Source of the DNA: Pseudomonas phage vB_PaeS-D14C
Reading direction: 5' to 3' (one strand)
Length of the DNA stretch: 38,595 bases
Sequence record: BK061477.1
A model generated the notes under the pieces. The model saw only the letters and a program-made list of their open reading frames with translations, ran no database searches and was not told the origin of the DNA. The translations under genes and the position numbers were made by a program. Positions 1 to 6,106 of this stretch are shown here, one piece after another; within the stretch, counting starts at the first letter, position 1; every line of letters begins with the position of its first letter.

Positions 1-441
1 TCAGTATTTATCGCGGAATCGGCTTGCGACACGAGCAAGGCAGGTCATCATCTCGCGCTGGCTAGCCTTACCATGGGCATCAGGGTGAAGGAGGGCAAGC
101 AAGGAGTAGCGGTTTTCCTCGAATAGCCCCTGGACGTAAACCAGGGCGGCGTCCTGTTGCGGAGCACCGTTCGGGCAGGTTCTGTCACGCTGAGGTCGGT
201 TGGCCGGGAACACCGTGGGCGGAATAGCGATGTGGATGTGCATCAGGCCGGCGCGATAAGCCTCCTGCGGCACGACATATGGCACATCACGCCCGAAATA
301 GGGTGGCAGCCAGAGACGATCAGATTCGATGTAGCGGGCAAAATCGCGGCAGAGACCATCAAGGAGAGAAGGGAAATCCTTCAGGACGTCCTGGAAGAGC
401 TCGGCGTAGGTTTCTGGATTGAACTCGACAATCACCGCCAT
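1..441 (-). CDS. yafO: YafO-family type II toxin (ribosome-dependent mRNA interferase), 146 aa. Complete, with its stop codon at 1..3.
   Basis: Motifs FGRD, HIHIA, LVYVQGLFEE and the C-terminal LLALLHPDAHGK...RVASRFR align with E. coli YafO as recalled from memory. It is the second gene of a two-gene minus-strand unit. Confidence 0.6.
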   Translation of the reverse strand: MAVIVEFNPETYAELFQDVLKDFPSLLDGLCRDFARYIESDRLWLPPYFGRDVPYVVPQEAYRAGLMHIHIAIPPTVFPANRPQRDRTCPNGAPQQDAALVYVQGLFEENRYSLLALLHPDAHGKASQREMMTCLARVASRFRDKY

Positions 442-449
442 CCTGGTGA

Positions 450-992
450 TCAGCTCACCAGGCGATGCAGGCGTTCGGTGCCGAGGTCGGCCAGAGATTT
501 GAGTCCTTCACCGCTTACGTCACTCTGGAAGACTTCAGGAACGGTGATTTGCTGCTTGAAGAGAATCTCGTTCTGCACGGCCATGGCGCGAACCTTAGCC
601 AGGTTGCGGCGAAAGGCGTCGTACTCTTCGCCGATTACTGGCAGTCTCGACAGTGAGCTATCGGCAGGAACAACCTCTTCTAGCTGGCGCAAGGTATGCA
701 CCACCTCGGTGAAGGGCTGCTCATTGATCAGCGAGTCAGGCACCTTATGCTCCAGCATGATCTTGCAGGATGTCTCAAGGGTGTCGCGAAGTTGGCCGAG
801 AGCAGCCATGGCGCGCTTGATGCGCTCGCGGATCTTGGCCTTCTTGGCAAGTTCCTGCTGCTGATGTTGCTTGCTGGGCTTTTGGCTATCCAGATTGGGG
901 GTTGCCGCTGCCAGTTGGGCGCACGAGGTCGAAACGCTCAGCGCCAGGCTGAGCATTGCTACCTTGGAGAAAGGAATCTTTGTGCGGGCCAT
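450..992 (-). CDS. Hypothetical 180-aa protein directly upstream of the YafO-like toxin; candidate non-canonical antitoxin partner.
   Basis: The start has a GGGAGAG Shine-Dalgarno-like motif 5 nt upstream of the ATG, and the gene ends 8 nt before the toxin start. A weakly hydrophobic N-terminal segment (VAMLSLALSVSTSC) is present. It does not resemble YafN/Phd. Confidence 0.5.
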   Translation of the reverse strand: MARTKIPFSKVAMLSLALSVSTSCAQLAAATPNLDSQKPSKQHQQQELAKKAKIRERIKRAMAALGQLRDTLETSCKIMLEHKVPDSLINEQPFTEVVHTLRQLEEVVPADSSLSRLPVIGEEYDAFRRNLAKVRAMAVQNEILFKQQITVPEVFQSDVSGEGLKSLADLGTERLHRLVS

Positions 993-1143
993 GCGGCTCT
1001 CCCGAGCAAGCTACAGGCCAAAGAATACCGCTAGTGGCACTACAACTCAATGTGAGGCGGCTATGAGGGGCCGTAGCGCGTTAAGCGCCGGGCAGGTCGG
1101 TCGTCAACTCAGCGCAGGACCGGGAGGGAAGGGGGGGAACGAA

Positions 1144-1175
1144 AAGGCCGCGCCGGGGAAGGTTCCGGCGCGGCC
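1144..1175 (-). terminator. GC-rich perfect palindrome (aggccgcgccgg..ccggcgcggcct), followed on the minus strand by CTTTTC. REP-like or intrinsic terminator.
   Basis: The 12-bp perfect inverted repeat was read directly. GAAAAG precedes it on the plus strand. Confidence 0.45.
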
Positions 1176-1238
1176 TGGTCCTTTCGGTGTTGTGCCTTCA
1201 AGGACGCCTCAATGCATCAAATGCGCGGCTGATGTGAA

Positions 1239-1266
1239 AAGGCCGCACGGGAATCGAGGCGCGGCC
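1239..1266 (-). terminator. Second copy of the GAAAAG-GGCCGC palindromic unit (aggccgc...gcggcct).
   Basis: 7-bp stem with the same conserved GAAAAGGCCGC lead as the first copy. Confidence 0.4.
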
Positions 1267-1330
1267 TGTGTCGGACGGCTGTCTTTCTTGGGCGGCGGAG
1301 GGCATCTGTCAAAGGCGGGCGGGGACGAAA

Positions 1331-1348
1331 AGCCCCGCGGGTGCGGGG
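1331..1348 (-). terminator. Third palindromic unit (gccccgc gggt gcggggc) preceded by GAAAAG; minus-strand terminator-like.
   Basis: Perfect 7-bp stem with a 4-nt loop; a T-run follows on the minus strand. Confidence 0.45.
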
Positions 1349-1395
1349 CAATTCCTGCATTACCCCCGCGCAGGAGTCGGAAGGAAAATTCCCGA

Positions 1396-2310
1396 TCAGT
1401 AGATCCTGGTAACCAGTACAGATTTTGGAACCAGAGCTCCTTTGTTGGGATCTTGCGTATATGTAACAGTGATGTCAGCTTGTATGAATTGCTGCGACGT
1501 GGCCTTTGAATAATCTACGCCGCTAGCGAATGACAGCCCCAGCTTTTTGTTCTTCGCTATAGACTGGATGCGAGCGACCCAACCTGAATGGTCACTATCT
1601 CGGTTCAGGGTGCGGATATCAATCGTGACGTTCTGGTAGGAAATTTCTTGATCGCTTGCGCTGAAATCGACGCTATCGGGCGCATCGCGCGCAGCTTCTT
1701 TGCTAATCCTCAGGTCGCTCGTGGCATCCTCGCCAGCGTAGATCGCACCGCCATTCTGGCCTGATGCCGGCTTAACGAAGTCCAGTGCTGCAGATGCAAT
1801 CTTCTTTCTGTCCTTTGACAGAGCGGCATTGACAGCAGATTCAAGCTGCTTGGGAGTGGCGTTAAATAGATTCTGACCCGCAACCATGACAACGCTATTG
1901 CTTGCGCTTATGGATGGGGCGTTTGTGCCTGACACCTTGTCTACCAAGGTGATAGCGCTTGATGCCACGACAACGAAAGCCGCAGCTGCTACGCCACCAA
2001 CGATCGTATAACGAAGTCCTTTCCCCATTTTCGTGGTCTTCAGCCAGTCCTCAAATTTCTGCCTTTCTTCAGTCGTGAGAAATTTTAGCGCTAACTCAAG
2101 GTATTCCTTAAGGCTTCCTGATTCAATCCTGGAAACCTTTAGCGCGCAGGAATCTACCTTTGCGCCACTGATGGACGAGAAGAATGCCGGGATCCCAAGG
2201 CTCATGCGCTCAAGAGCGGACAGGGCCTTGATCACATCTGGGATTGGTACAGGTTTCTTGGTGTCGTAGTAGAAGGCAAGCGGAAGGCTGACTTCCAAGT
2301 CCGTAGTCAC
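1396..2310 (-). CDS. Hypothetical 304-aa protein with one central TM helix (GLRYTIVGGVAAAAFVVVASSAITLV). Lower GC than the flanks; second gene downstream of cI.
   Basis: Long ORF in the six-frame track. Roughly 50% GC against roughly 62% in the phage backbone. Hydrophobic segment at residues 100-127. Confidence 0.6.
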   Translation of the reverse strand: MTTDLEVSLPLAFYYDTKKPVPIPDVIKALSALERMSLGIPAFFSSISGAKVDSCALKVSRIESGSLKEYLELALKFLTTEERQKFEDWLKTTKMGKGLRYTIVGGVAAAAFVVVASSAITLVDKVSGTNAPSISASNSVVMVAGQNLFNATPKQLESAVNAALSKDRKKIASAALDFVKPASGQNGGAIYAGEDATSDLRISKEAARDAPDSVDFSASDQEISYQNVTIDIRTLNRDSDHSGWVARIQSIAKNKKLGLSFASGVDYSKATSQQFIQADITVTYTQDPNKGALVPKSVLVTRIY

Positions 2311-2387
2311 TGCTCGTTTTCCTTATTGAATCCCGTAATTATTCATGGCCAGTTCACTCCCCCATGATCTGCCTATAGCTCAATCAG

Positions 2388-2861
2388 CTAGAGCGGATCA
2401 GGCGTCAAGCCGATAGGGAAACTGTCGTACCCATCGATCCTAGGGATGTCTCCGATCAGGCGGGCAATCTCTACCGATGCCTTCGGAACGTGTGGGAATC
2501 CGCGGCTGAGTTGGCGCCACATCTGCCTGGCAATATGGCGAAGCTCATGCGGACCTCCAACGCGCATCGTGTGCAGCCACACCATTAGGGCTGCGGCATC
2601 ACTTGGTTGGCCGACCTTTTGGTATTCCCTGATAGCCCGCCCTATCTTGAGCACGACGGTTGGATCCATAGAGTAAGAAACTATGGGATCAAGGAAGTTG
2701 TACCCTTCATCCTCCCAGTGGTGCCGCTGATGGGTTGCGATGGCAACGAGATAGCCGAGCTCGCTTCCATCCATAGAGGAAATCCTGTCAACGAATGACT
2801 CCATTTCCTTCCGCTGGATTCTCCCGAACCACGCCAGCATCCATCTGGATAAAAAAGCCAT
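2388..2861 (-). CDS. Hypothetical 157-aa protein immediately downstream of cI (start MAFLSRW...).
   Basis: A perfect AGGAGG Shine-Dalgarno motif lies 6 nt upstream of the ATG at 2861 (reverse complement), directly after the cI stop. The track ORF 2388..2885 was trimmed to this start. Confidence 0.6.
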   Translation of the reverse strand: MAFLSRWMLAWFGRIQRKEMESFVDRISSMDGSELGYLVAIATHQRHHWEDEGYNFLDPIVSYSMDPTVVLKIGRAIREYQKVGQPSDAAALMVWLHTMRVGGPHELRHIARQMWRQLSRGFPHVPKASVEIARLIGDIPRIDGYDSFPIGLTPDPL

Positions 2862-2871
2862 CATTGGCCTC

Positions 2872-3678
2872 CTATAAATCCCCACCCCGCCAGATGACCT
2901 TGCCTATGATGCGGTGCTCGTCGTTGTCTTCACGCGACAGGTTACGGTCTGGAAACTCGGCCTTATCCTCGTTGTCACTTCGGATTATCCAGCGGCCAAA
3001 AGTGGATGAAACCAGCCTCTTGACGATGGCTCCATCAGATCCAGCGAGCACGAAGACCTGGTGGTCTTCAGGCTCAATCTTAGATAAATCAACGAGGAGC
3101 ACATCACCATCGTTGATGGTGGGCTCCATGCTCTCACCATCCGCATAAATGACGGCCAAGCTCTTTGGGCTGACGCCCTTCGCCTTGAGCCACTCCCGCT
3201 TAAAAGCCAAGGTGGCTCGAATCTCAACATGCGGGTTCTCACTTCCTAAACCGGCCGCTGCCTTGGCATCGTACTGAGGCACGAAGGCGTATCGCTCCTC
3301 GCTCAGGTCGGCAGCATCAAGACGATCCGGGAATGGCGCATTCGCGGCTTCGCGCTCAGGCGCCTTGACTCCATCTTGGCGACTGGCGCGCCTGATTCCA
3401 GAAGCCAGGGTTGGGCTCACCTCCGACGGCTCAAACTGAAGATGCTCGGCGAGCCTGACAAGAGCCTCAAGGTTAAGCGCAACGCGTCCAGTCATGTATT
3501 GACTGACGGTGCTTTGCCCGGACTTCCAGCCGCATTTTTCACCCAGCTCAGCCTGGTTCAGTATTGGATTGTCACCGCGTTCACGCGATTCCTTGACTCG
3601 CTTCTTGTAGATGGCCTGGAGGCGCTTAGCGTCGTCCAACTGGGATTGCGACAGAGGGGTTCTTACGGGTTTTTTCAT
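2872..3678 (-). CDS. cI: CI-like phage repressor: N-terminal XRE-type HTH plus C-terminal S24/LexA-like autopeptidase, 268 aa.
   Basis: The N-terminus (MKKPVRTPLSQSQLDDAKRLQAIYKK...QAELGEKCGWKSGQSTVSQY) is HTH-like and the C-terminus (YADGESMEPTINDGDVLLVD...GAIVKRL) is peptidase-S24-like. The start was trimmed from track ORF 2872..3855 to the internal MKKPV. Confidence 0.85.
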   Translation of the reverse strand: MKKPVRTPLSQSQLDDAKRLQAIYKKRVKESRERGDNPILNQAELGEKCGWKSGQSTVSQYMTGRVALNLEALVRLAEHLQFEPSEVSPTLASGIRRASRQDGVKAPEREAANAPFPDRLDAADLSEERYAFVPQYDAKAAAGLGSENPHVEIRATLAFKREWLKAKGVSPKSLAVIYADGESMEPTINDGDVLLVDLSKIEPEDHQVFVLAGSDGAIVKRLVSSTFGRWIIRSDNEDKAEFPDRNLSREDNDEHRIIGKVIWRGGDL

Positions 3679-3712
3679 CCGAGTGATTAAGTAGCAGAGC
3701 TGATATTTTTGC

Positions 3713-3764
3713 AAACAGCACTGCTGCTGTTTTGCTTGAAAAATCAATAACAGCAGTGCTAATG
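3713..3764. promoter_or_regulatory. Immunity operator region: two palindromic sites with an AGCA-N-TGCT core (aaacagcaCtgctgctgttt and aataacagcaGtgctaat) between divergent cI and cro. A candidate PR is ttgaaa-N18-taatgt.
   Basis: Palindromes read directly from the 115-bp cI-cro intergenic region. Confidence 0.45.
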
Positions 3765-3793
3765 TGTGTGAAGGACTCCAGCGAGAGCACACC

Positions 3794-3991
3794 ATGAAGA
3801 CCGTAACCCTCATTGAATACCTGGCTGAGCACGGCACGCAGGCTGATCTGGCCAAAGGGCTTGGCGTGCAGCAGAGCGCTATCTCTCAGATGCTCCGCGC
3901 CAAGCGGAACATAACCATCACGATCCGTGACGACGGGAAGTTGGAGGCTGTTGAAACGCGGCCGATCCCGGCGCGCAAGGCCGTTGCCTGA
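3794..3991 (+). CDS. cro: Cro-like HTH repressor, 66 aa (MKTVTLIEYLAEHGTQADLAKGLGVQQSAISQM...).
   Basis: Small HTH protein divergent from cI. The start was chosen at the internal ATG of track ORF 3764..3991. Confidence 0.7.
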   Translation: MKTVTLIEYLAEHGTQADLAKGLGVQQSAISQMLRAKRNITITIRDDGKLEAVETRPIPARKAVA

Positions 3992-4023
3992 CCCCGACCA
4001 ATCTACCGGCCGGGAGGCCAGCC

Positions 4024-4368
4024 ATGACCGAATTCATGCAAATCCTGATCTTTGGGACCTCGTTGGCGATGGCCTACTTCCTGGGCGCTACGTCGTCGAG
4101 GAAGAGCTCCAGTGAAATCCGGCTGATCGACAAGTGGCCAACGGCCTACATCCAGTTCGACTCAGACATGAGCCAAGAGGATGCGCTGCGTTTCATCGAG
4201 CTGGCCCGCGAAATGGTTCTGGCCGGGCCAGAGAAAGTGACTGCCGAGAAAGCGCTGAAGGATGACGAGGAGAGCCGAGACGCTTTCTGGGCGCAGTCTC
4301 TCAAGACTGGTTTGGCCTCGTTCGAATCGCGTTCCAAGTCTTCACATAACCCTCGAGACCCCCAATGA
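4024..4368 (+). CDS. Hypothetical 114-aa early protein with an N-terminal hydrophobic helix.
   Basis: Plus-strand ORF after cro. N-terminal ILIFGTSLAMAYFLGA. Its 3' end overlaps a minus-strand ORF. Confidence 0.4.
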   Translation: MTEFMQILIFGTSLAMAYFLGATSSRKSSSEIRLIDKWPTAYIQFDSDMSQEDALRFIELAREMVLAGPEKVTAEKALKDDEESRDAFWAQSLKTGLASFESRSKSSHNPRDPQ

Positions 4369-4561
4369 CTTCGTCCGGCAGCTGCGAGTACGCCAAGAAC
4401 GATCGCATGTGCGCAATTTCGTTATCGAACCCGTCGAGAACCCTCCCGAGTTCCGCAGGTGTTAGCGAGCGTGCCATTGCCATAAGGAAGGCGTTGATAC
4501 CCATCAGTTCGCCTTTCTGCGCGTTGATCGTCGCAACGATCTTGTCGATTTCATCAGTCAT
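4301..4561 (-). CDS. Hypothetical 86-aa protein encoded antisense to the early-right operon (MTDEIDKIVATINAQKGELMGINAF...).
   Basis: Protein-like composition. The internal ATG at 4561 was chosen over the track start at 4624. Convergent with 4024..4368. Confidence 0.4.
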   Translation of the reverse strand: MTDEIDKIVATINAQKGELMGINAFLMAMARSLTPAELGRVLDGFDNEIAHMRSFLAYSQLPDEVIGGLEGYVKTWNAIRTRPNQS

Positions 4562-4704
4562 GCCCGGCCTCCGTGGCCTTTCCGTGTGGAAGCAGAAAGC
4601 TATCACGGATGCGCCGGACTCCACATTCGAAGCGCTGGCTTTCGCCGTTCCCTCAATTCACGGCTGACAGCGTATAGCACCGACCTCATGGGAAGAACTA
4701 GAGC

Positions 4705-5169
4705 ATGAAAACGCCCGTACTAGAGACCCGCAGAAAGGTAATGACCACGGTAGCCAATGCCTATCCGGGCGGTCGCGATTGCGCTGCTGCGCGACTGGGG
4801 ATTCCGCTGAAGCGCCTGGAGAACCAGATGTACGAAACGGCGGGCGTGAAGCCCCTGAGCGACGGCGACCTGTACGTCCTGGAGCAGGAGATGGGGACTT
4901 CCTATCTGCCGGACTACATCTGCGCGATGTACGGGGGAGTGTTTGTGCGGACGCCGGAAGCGGGCGATCTGGACAACGTAGACCTGCACCACCGTTCGCT
5001 GCGTACAGCGGTTAAGCGTGGACGGGTTGATCAGATGATCGCTCTGGCCCTGGAAGACGGGGAGATCAGCGCCGATGAGGCGAAGGAAATCTTGGCCCTG
5101 CATGCCAAGCACATGGCTGCCCGGCATGAAGAGGTTCGAGCCGTGCTCGAACTGCACAGGGCGAAGTGA
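4705..5169 (+). CDS. Phage CII-like regulatory protein (CP76-family-like), 154 aa.
   Basis: Position after cro. Helix-rich ~150-aa protein resembling phage regulatory protein CII as recalled from memory. Confidence 0.45.
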   Translation: MKTPVLETRRKVMTTVANAYPGGRDCAAARLGIPLKRLENQMYETAGVKPLSDGDLYVLEQEMGTSYLPDYICAMYGGVFVRTPEAGDLDNVDLHHRSLRTAVKRGRVDQMIALALEDGEISADEAKEILALHAKHMAARHEEVRAVLELHRAK

Positions 5170-5171
5170 CT

Positions 5172-5357
5172 ATGCGCCCTCGTCTCACGAACTCTGACTA
5201 CGCCGCAATGGCTAACGCTGCTGAAGAGCTGGCGGGTATGGGGTCGAGTGAGTGGAGGCGCAGATACAACAAAGCCCTGAGCGACTACTACAGGGCTTTG
5301 TCGGTGCGCAAGCCAGTTGCAGCTGGCTTGCGCGTACAGCAATACATGGAGACCTGA
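5172..5357 (+). CDS. Small hypothetical protein, 61 aa.
   Basis: ORF tightly packed between the CII-like and HNH genes. Confidence 0.35.
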   Translation: MRPRLTNSDYAAMANAAEELAGMGSSEWRRRYNKALSDYYRALSVRKPVAAGLRVQQYMET

Positions 5358-5359
5358 GT

Positions 5360-6106
5360 ATGAGTTACAGAGAGAGCATTCGCAAGTCCGTGCGCTTTGA
5401 GGTGTTCAAGCGCGACAACTTCACTTGCCAGTACTGCGGCGCCAAGGCGCCTGACGTGGTCCTGCATGTCGATCACATCAACCCGGTGAGCAAGGGCGGC
5501 GACAACGAGATCATCAACCTGGTGACCGCCTGCCTGCCCTGCAATCTCGGCAAGTCGGATCGCCTGCTGTCGGACACCTCAATGCTGGATCGTCAGCGGG
5601 CCCAGTTGGAAGACCTGAACGAGCGCCGCGAGCAGCTGGAAATGATGCTGGCCTGGCGCGATGAGCTCCAGTCTTTCGGTGAAGAGACCGTACAGCTGAT
5701 TGCCGATCGCATCACCGCACGCATGGTCGGCCACTCGGTCAACGAGCACGGCAAGACGGTAATCCGCAAATGGATCAAGAAGTTCTCCGTCGAGGAGATC
5801 CTGGACGCCCTGGACATCGCCGCCGACAAGCTCAGCACTGCGCCCGATCAGGAGGAAGTGCTGGAGTGCTTCGATGCCATTCCTCGCATTTGCGTCACCC
5901 GGCGCCTTCCCGAAGCAAAGCAGAAAATGCTCTACGCCAGAGGAATCCTGCGCCGCCGGATTTATGTCAACGAAGCTCACGTCATGCCGCTGATGGCCAA
6001 GGCCATCGAGGCGGGTCTCGAGGTGGAAGAGCTGATCGAATTTGCGAAACAAGTGAAGAACTGGACCGAATTCCGGGCAGAGATGGAGGAAATCGCAAAT
6101 GGCTAG
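5360..6106 (+). CDS. HNH endonuclease-domain protein, 248 aa: N-terminal HNH plus a C-terminal domain of unknown function.
   Basis: FTCQYCGAKAPDVVLHVDHINPVSKGGDNEIINLVTACLPCNLGK is a canonical HNH motif. GGAGA lies 7 nt upstream of the ATG at 5360. Confidence 0.7.
   Translation: MSYRESIRKSVRFEVFKRDNFTCQYCGAKAPDVVLHVDHINPVSKGGDNEIINLVTACLPCNLGKSDRLLSDTSMLDRQRAQLEDLNERREQLEMMLAWRDELQSFGEETVQLIADRITARMVGHSVNEHGKTVIRKWIKKFSVEEILDALDIAADKLSTAPDQEEVLECFDAIPRICVTRRLPEAKQKMLYARGILRRRIYVNEAHVMPLMAKAIEAGLEVEELIEFAKQVKNWTEFRAEMEEIANG

Follow-up and report, generated by a model that had tools for sequence, protein, structure and literature searches.

The stretch of DNA analysed here, 38,595 nucleotides (nt) of Pseudomonas phage vB_PaeS-D14C (sequence record BK061477.1) and called the window throughout, carries two uncharacterised genes, A and B, immediately downstream of the gene for its cI-type repressor. 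Comparison of loci indicates that A and B are separate, independently mobile passengers and not a pair, since loci with only A or only B are the rule and the two cassettes separate cleanly within P. aeruginosa. The favoured explanation, to which a probability of about 60% is given, is that A and B, unrelated to each other and acquired independently, form a stack of two single-gene cassettes in the slot downstream of the repressor, each being proposed as a lysogen-protecting factor. We infer that both are expressed in lysogens and that they may act against other phages. Positions and strands are those of the window, and cI, gene A and gene B are all on the minus strand:

2872..3678, minus strand: cI-type repressor, 268 amino acids (aa) from the ATG at 3678, with HTH_3 and Peptidase_S24 domains, assigned to phrog_4 (transcriptional repressor)
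2388..2861, minus strand: gene A, 157 aa, an all-alpha soluble protein of an uncharacterised family, with an alternative in-frame ATG at 2864
1396..2310, minus strand: gene B, 304 aa, a predicted bitopic inner-membrane protein of PHROG 4506, with a GTG start and AAGGA 9 nt upstream

Profiles for A and B were run against every open reading frame (ORF) of 91 fetched loci. The two genes were found together only in a near-identical P. aeruginosa cassette, present in U7, U9 and three IMG/VR contigs. Clustering at 85% identity gave 30 clusters for B and nine for A, and across these clusters no partner gene was found within 6 kb on either side outside the shared cassette. In all, A is found without B, or B without A, over about 45 lineages. 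An earlier note on this DNA had proposed a two-gene module resembling rexAB, and it is this part of its interpretation that does not hold, as each gene otherwise stands alone; what survives is that both genes are uncharacterised and occupy a position typical of lysogen cargo. A vague "rex-like pair" is thus replaced by two separately testable candidates. The boundaries of the two cassettes can be read from blastn comparisons, and a third short stretch, found with blastn-short, recurs at the junctions:

2386..2877, minus strand: cassette A as an indel unit, exactly absent from locus L015
1354..2353, minus strand: cassette B as a replacement unit, in place of which loci L079 and L080 carry 991 bp with a DUF3800 gene between conserved flanks
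2876..2921, minus strand: the last ~16 codons of cI, a recurrent stretch of 40-50 bp found at 97-100% identity in loci with other cI types

Locus L015 joins window position 2878 to 2385 at a 3-nt microhomology; gene A is gone and B is kept at 99.6% identity. The reverse arrangement is seen in L079 and L080, which retain 2921..2354 (with A at 99%) and then return to the window sequence at the terminators, the intervening DUF3800 gene matching Pfam DUF3800 at 7e-22 and the PADLOC family PDC-M04A at 3e-7. Both genes are missing from phage phita81A, where the same cI is followed from its stop codon by an 84-aa gene and by DUF6978 and DUF1828 genes before the same terminators are reached; the latter two match components A and B of PDC-M24, a PADLOC candidate system, at 1e-8 and 1e-13. 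In U7 and L079 the stretch 2876..2921 lies ahead of A, in L015 it marks the cI-B junction from which A is missing, and it is also present in L096, L105, L116 and L125, which have neither A nor B. It behaves like a junction scar or a shared recombination linker between cargo modules. At one locus (L098/L014, IMGVR_UViG_2511231165_000002) a 162-aa lipoprotein gene with the lipobox LSGC stands between a different cI and an identical A+B cassette, making a triple cargo stack.

To examine the slot itself, IMG/VR was scanned for an exact pattern of the third terminator hairpin, and 42 stretches were found, 32 of them with a same-strand cI-like gene upstream. Over these 32 loci the interval from cI to the terminator ranges from 270 to 2316 bp, and the proteins of 80 aa or more that it encodes fall into 28 families. 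The cI genes are of seven types; a single type may occur with as many as six cargo sets, and several of the sets are common to different types. The 270-bp interval, that of L103, is free of cargo genes of 80 aa or more. Because gene content varies between conserved flanks, down to this locus free of such cargo, the cI-to-terminator interval is a variable cargo (moron) hotspot in lambda-like temperate phages of P. aeruginosa. It is rich in defence genes, and its occupants include BstA (L107 and L112; full length, PADLOC 4.6e-118), SoFic (PADLOC 7.6e-42), an HEPN_IX-like protein, PIN pairs, a DUF433 + PIN_10 pair, Fic, a ParA-like ATPase, DUF3800, DUF6932 and a lipoprotein. The cI-N interval of enterobacterial lambdoid phages is a known mosaic hotspot holding rexAB or bstA, presumably driven from the repressor promoter, and across Gram-negative bacteria BstA shows a striking link with the position behind prophage repressors (PMC8585504). 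A RexAB-type system, with a RexA-fold sensor and an effector having four transmembrane (TM) helices, also lies downstream of a P. putida prophage repressor (PMC12894663). The hotspot idea is already established, and the addition made here is of two uncharacterised, widespread families without known folds.

In the IMG/VR loci L093-L134, from P. aeruginosa prophages, the slot has at least 20 further cargo families that are uncharacterised. Among them are proteins of 278 and 246 aa that accompany PIN proteins, one of 300 aa in L105, one of 293 aa that is paired with a HEPN-like protein, and a 126+115-aa pair of which the 115-aa protein looks membrane-anchored. Bounded by the 3' end of cI and by the triple terminator, the slot provides a ready-made list of defence candidates for mining.

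The window belongs to a lambda-like temperate phage of P. aeruginosa whose replication, packaging and head genes are 93-95% identical to those of vB_Pae_U7, 5371 and 5399 over ~70% of the query. Its cI is 98.9% identical to the annotated cI of phita81A, the annotation of which uses a longer TTG start (3714 here). Three further features define the layout:

3794..3991, plus strand: cro-like gene of 65 aa, divergent from cI, taken from the ORF list; counterpart of the annotated phita81A cro, defining the immunity region
2868..2873, minus strand: AGGAGG ribosome-binding site of gene A, read from the sequence, overlapping the cI stop codon TAG at 2874-2872
1141..1349, minus strand: three tandem intrinsic-terminator-like hairpins with U-tracts, at 1349-1332, ~1267-1241 and 1176-1145

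Gene A has two in-frame ATGs (2864 and 2861), 7-10 nt past the cI stop, of which the homologue alignment favours 2861. The spacer between A and B is 77 nt. Hairpins 1 and 3 were called by the terminator scan and all three appear in the RNA fold, which for positions 1100-1400 is more stable than 100 out of 100 shuffles (z = -3.9). This terminator region, 87-93% conserved in many P. aeruginosa phages, forms the downstream boundary of the cargo slot. The terminator scan gave no credible terminator between the cI stop and the end of B, finding only two weak 5-bp stems within the B coding sequence, and a sigma-70 scan gave no promoter between cI and B. An Rfam search of positions 1-5000, at an E-value threshold, gave no match. 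Much of this had been anticipated: the AGGAGG and ATG directly after the cI stop, the same-strand position that lambda gives to rexA and rexB, the closing of the unit by three hairpins and the single-pass nature of the 304-aa protein were all read correctly in the earlier note. Its claim of low GC content (~50% against ~62%) applies to B only and overstated the contrast, since B is at 50.9% (55% at third codon positions, GC3) and A is at 55.1%, with 56.2% for cI, 58.7% for the whole window and 59.0% for the rest of the window. The GC content of A is no different from that of cI, that of B is clearly below the window, and B alone of the two is clearly atypical in composition. Both are real genes: each belongs to a conserved family and is modelled with confidence, the predicted local distance difference test score (pLDDT) being 92 for A and 87 for B.

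From this layout, the co-transcription of A and B with cI can be proposed, and the two genes would most likely be read from the repressor maintenance transcript in lysogens. Gene A would be translationally coupled to cI, gene B would be translated after the 77-nt spacer from its own Shine-Dalgarno sequence, and the transcript would end at the three hairpins. Each gene is proposed to act alone, its prophage-expressed product protecting the lysogen from other phages.

The gene B protein matches the profile of PHROG 4506 end to end (E 7e-42, residues 4-303 on profile positions 4-298 of 300), a family itself without assigned function, so that the match names B without explaining it. Full-length homologues of B, without exception annotated as hypothetical, occur in Pseudomonas, many Enterobacterales, Burkholderiales and one cyanophage. 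No meaningful match to B came from Pfam, NCBIfam or PADLOC, and Pfam over all 40 members of the B family returned scattered noise only. The AlphaFold2 model consists of an alpha/beta N-terminal domain (1-97), a TM helix (105-127), three helices (132-182) and a beta domain (190-303). The best 19-residue Kyte-Doolittle window, 2.13 at residues 102-120, marks the sole hydrophobic segment:

1933..2004, minus strand: coding region of the single TM helix of B (residues ~103-126), predicted N-in, C-out

No signal peptide was found at the N-terminus of B. Over 40 family members there are 3.2 lysines and arginines per 15 residues before the helix versus 0.28 after it; as the positive-inside rule strongly favours this orientation, the N-terminus of B is predicted to be cytoplasmic and the C-terminal ~175 residues to be periplasmic. 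Invariant residues are found on both sides of the membrane (ESGSLxE at 63-69; R233, D238 and W244). The structure searches that the earlier note had recommended, together with AlphaFold modelling, for both proteins produced no convincing fold relative for either confident model in the Protein Data Bank (PDB), and a Foldseek search of BFVD with B gave one uncharacterised match and no convincing relative. Sequence-profile searches against the PDB also returned nothing for A or B.

The placement of B recurs beyond Pseudomonas. In the E. coli lambdoid phage 1H12 the PHROG 4506 member, gp50, comes straight after cI, between cI and N, in the true rex slot. Among 5426 complete E. coli genomes, 150 match the 1H12 cI-B stretch over 80% or more of the query. 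Among 31 representative loci (the 30 clusters and L015), 13 have a cI or helix-turn-helix (HTH) gene no more than three genes upstream of B on the same strand. A conserved partner for B was sought and only one was found, in one Pseudomonas/Ectopseudomonas sublineage, where a YecR-family lipoprotein gene always precedes B at the prophage edge (L005 5452-6906, L008 4411-5930, L009 and L010). This may be a separate two-gene arrangement. The lipoprotein of the triple stack in L098 is unrelated to the YecR lipoprotein.

The gene A protein had no match in Pfam, PHROG, NCBIfam or PADLOC, and the PDB structure search with its all-alpha AlphaFold model (pLDDT 92) gave no fold relative. A has no hydrophobic segment and is predicted to be cytoplasmic. 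An exhaustive profile search gave a family of 683 representatives at 50% identity, most of them stand-alone proteins of ~157 aa. Some relatives carry N-terminal membrane anchors (DUF805-type, or a multi-TM segment) or zinc ribbons with the A domain C-terminal (P0078, P0109, P0119), and others have the A domain N-terminal with SEC-C or other C-terminal extensions (P0167, P0183, P0200). These fusions to membrane anchors, zinc ribbons and SEC-C suggest that the A domain works close to the membrane or as one module in larger proteins. Rx4H (HEPN-like) and HExxH motifs in A were considered and rejected because their histidines are not conserved in the family alignment. A pattern scan of genome contigs for A, using strict derived patterns, recovered only 6 loci. 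Gene A follows repressors of different types, with anything from a small overlap to a gap of 24 nt, in L004, L006, L082, L083, L135 and L138, the hosts being P. putida, P. protegens, two more IMG/VR prophages, Pseudomonas sp. Au-Pse12 and Sphingopyxis. Not every copy is near a repressor: an Azotobacter prophage has A beside its tail genes, and L085-L090, L136 and L137 have it in yet other surroundings.

It is the position of A and B, and the neighbouring cargo of the slot, that make them candidate anti-phage factors, and for A a defence or exclusion role is suggested by position only. The chance that at least one of them confers phage resistance is put at about even. That A and/or B each found a new, widespread single-gene anti-phage family without a known fold relative is offered more tentatively, at somewhat less than an even chance. 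Such a family for B would couple a cytoplasmic to a periplasmic domain behind repressors from P. aeruginosa to E. coli, and such a family for A would ride repressor transcripts across Alpha-, Beta- and Gammaproteobacteria, a picture held just as tentatively. Given its two-sided membrane architecture, B would most likely act at the envelope or inner membrane, with a cytoplasmic alpha/beta domain of ~100 aa, a TM helix and a periplasmic domain of ~175 aa made up of three helices and a beta-sandwich. It could be a superinfection-exclusion protein that stops genome entry, or it could sense infection through its cytoplasmic domain and act as a membrane-located effector of abortive infection.

Known systems give partial parallels for this proposal. 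P22 SieA, HK97 gp15, T4 Imm and Sp, and lactococcal Sie2009 are small inner-membrane proteins, encoded by prophages or phages and expressed in lysogens, that block genome entry. The predicted N-in/C-out bitopic topology and the periplasmic domain of B would suit such a mode of action, the proposed likeness being one of function and topology. B differs from entry blockers of the SieA type in being larger and in having a conserved cytoplasmic domain with the invariant ESGSLxE; we know of no simple entry blocker with a conserved cytoplasmic domain of this type. BstA, from prophage BTP1 and relatives, is likewise single-gene cargo downstream of a repressor and occupies this very slot in L107 and L112. 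In contrast to B, a predicted membrane protein, BstA is cytoplasmic and DNA-associated and acts by abortive infection, and neither A nor B matches the BstA model. Three published candidates were also set aside: the overlapping exclusion genes of Fc02 (PMC9936078) encode other proteins; Tab (PMC10884400) is a different protein, of 83 residues and from a late operon; and GiPD474 (PMC12724215), described as containing an ATPase domain, is by that description probably unrelated to A or B.

Several points weigh against A and B as lysogen-protecting factors. What is proposed of the mechanism of B, and of A, is drawn from topology and position alone, because neither has a fold relative in the PDB, nor B in BFVD. 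Little weight can be given to guilt by association, as cargo outside defence is found in slots of this kind too. Neither A nor B matches any PADLOC v2 model, and zero families were recorded for either at E values up to 1 in PADLOC-DB v2.0.0, the models of which include BstA, SoFic and the PD- and PDC- series. The A family is very broad, and its 683 representatives may not be mostly prophage-borne. Finally, B occupies late-lytic sites in PseuP_222 (L012), between a Q-type antiterminator and putative lysis genes, and in the Mu-like Leptolyngbya phage Lsp-JY19, upstream of lysozyme. Such sites, like the one at a prophage end beside the YecR lipoprotein, are nevertheless also typical of morons. 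The genes downstream of B in PseuP_222 (5011-5699) are annotated as 'tail needle protein' and 'NADH-ubiquinone oxidoreductase MWFE subunit'; they are probably mis-annotated, because they stand after a Q-type antiterminator, where holin and lysis genes are expected.

Another reading is that A and/or B are lysogenic-conversion genes outside phage defence, raising lysogen fitness through envelope remodelling, stress tolerance or host interaction. Non-defence morons are found in cargo slots, B is a predicted envelope protein with a large periplasmic domain and, in one Pseudomonas sublineage, has a YecR-type lipoprotein as its partner where the prophage ends, A-domain relatives are fused to generic membrane and stress modules (DUF805, SHOCT, GYF_2, SEC-C) in proteins that do not look phage-derived, and PADLOC is silent on both genes. 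The identifiable cargo of this slot is, however, overwhelmingly of defence or toxin type, and the strong, repeated association with repressors suits lysogen-specific functions, among which exclusion is the commonest known. Conversion outside defence is regarded as unlikely, at something over one chance in five. Should neither gene turn out to affect phage infection, the slot would be shown not to be defence-only.

Far less can be said for an obligate two-component abortive-infection system of the RexAB type, in which a soluble sensor A activates a membrane effector B, both co-transcribed with cI. The slot, the strand and the order of a soluble and then a membrane protein are those of lambda cI-rexA-rexB, and the A+B cassette transfers as one block between immunity types (U7, U9, L014). 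Lambda rexA-rexB and RexABpp of P. putida prophage P1 also share with A and B the presumed expression from the repressor promoter. The members of an obligate pair like RexA and RexB belong together, whereas A and B occur together in one near-identical cassette only, and this distribution already largely refutes the pair. The proteins differ too: RexB is a four-helix bundle whereas B has one TM helix and large soluble domains, and RexA is a DNA-binding protein of 279 aa whereas A has 157 aa and is all-alpha. Comparison by hhalign with the lambda RexA and RexB profiles gave probabilities below 1% for A and B (~0.3% for B against RexB). A RexA-like fold (PDB 8TWQ) and a RexB-like effector with four TM helices were thus rejected for A and B, there being no relation in sequence or fold.

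Equally improbable is a role for A as an accessory of the lysogeny switch, modulating repressor stability, cleavage or anti-repressor action. Such a role would account for the translational coupling of A to repressors: its ribosome-binding site overlaps the cI stop codon in this phage, and it lies within a small overlap to 24 nt behind at least three unrelated repressor types in at least seven lineages, from Gamma- to Alphaproteobacteria. On the other hand, the same cI is found in phages altogether lacking A (phita81A), A also occurs away from repressors (the Azotobacter tail genes and the loci listed above), its relatives can be fused to membrane anchors, and BstA, with the same repressor-linked synteny, is yet a defence protein. 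Least probable of all is that B serves the phage lytic cycle, for instance as a lysis or envelope-associated regulator: in its favour, the homologues in PseuP_222 and Lsp-JY19 stand just ahead of putative lysis genes, but in this phage and in many E. coli and Pseudomonas prophages B is on the repressor strand directly behind cI, opposite the lytic operons, and the phage can do without it, since close relatives that share the backbone lack B.

Returning to A and B as separate lysogen-protecting cassettes, B is the more attractive target, having an E. coli orthologue in the classical cI-N slot of a genetically easy host, and its unusual two-sided membrane architecture could reveal a new inner-membrane mode of phage exclusion or sensing. 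What a prophage expresses beside its repressor largely determines which phages are able to infect clinical strains of P. aeruginosa and E. coli, a question relevant to phage therapy.

Beyond the triple terminator and on the same strand lies a YafO-toxin-like gene (1..441, minus strand; Pfam PF13957 at 1.5e-18, NCBIfam YafO family at 9e-17). A 180-aa gene (450..992, minus strand; phrog_22162) stands 8 nt upstream of it, and the N-terminus of its product resembles a signal peptide, for which reason the protein is unlike a YafN-type antitoxin. These genes, too, may be cargo; alternatively, they may form an orphan or unusual toxin pair.

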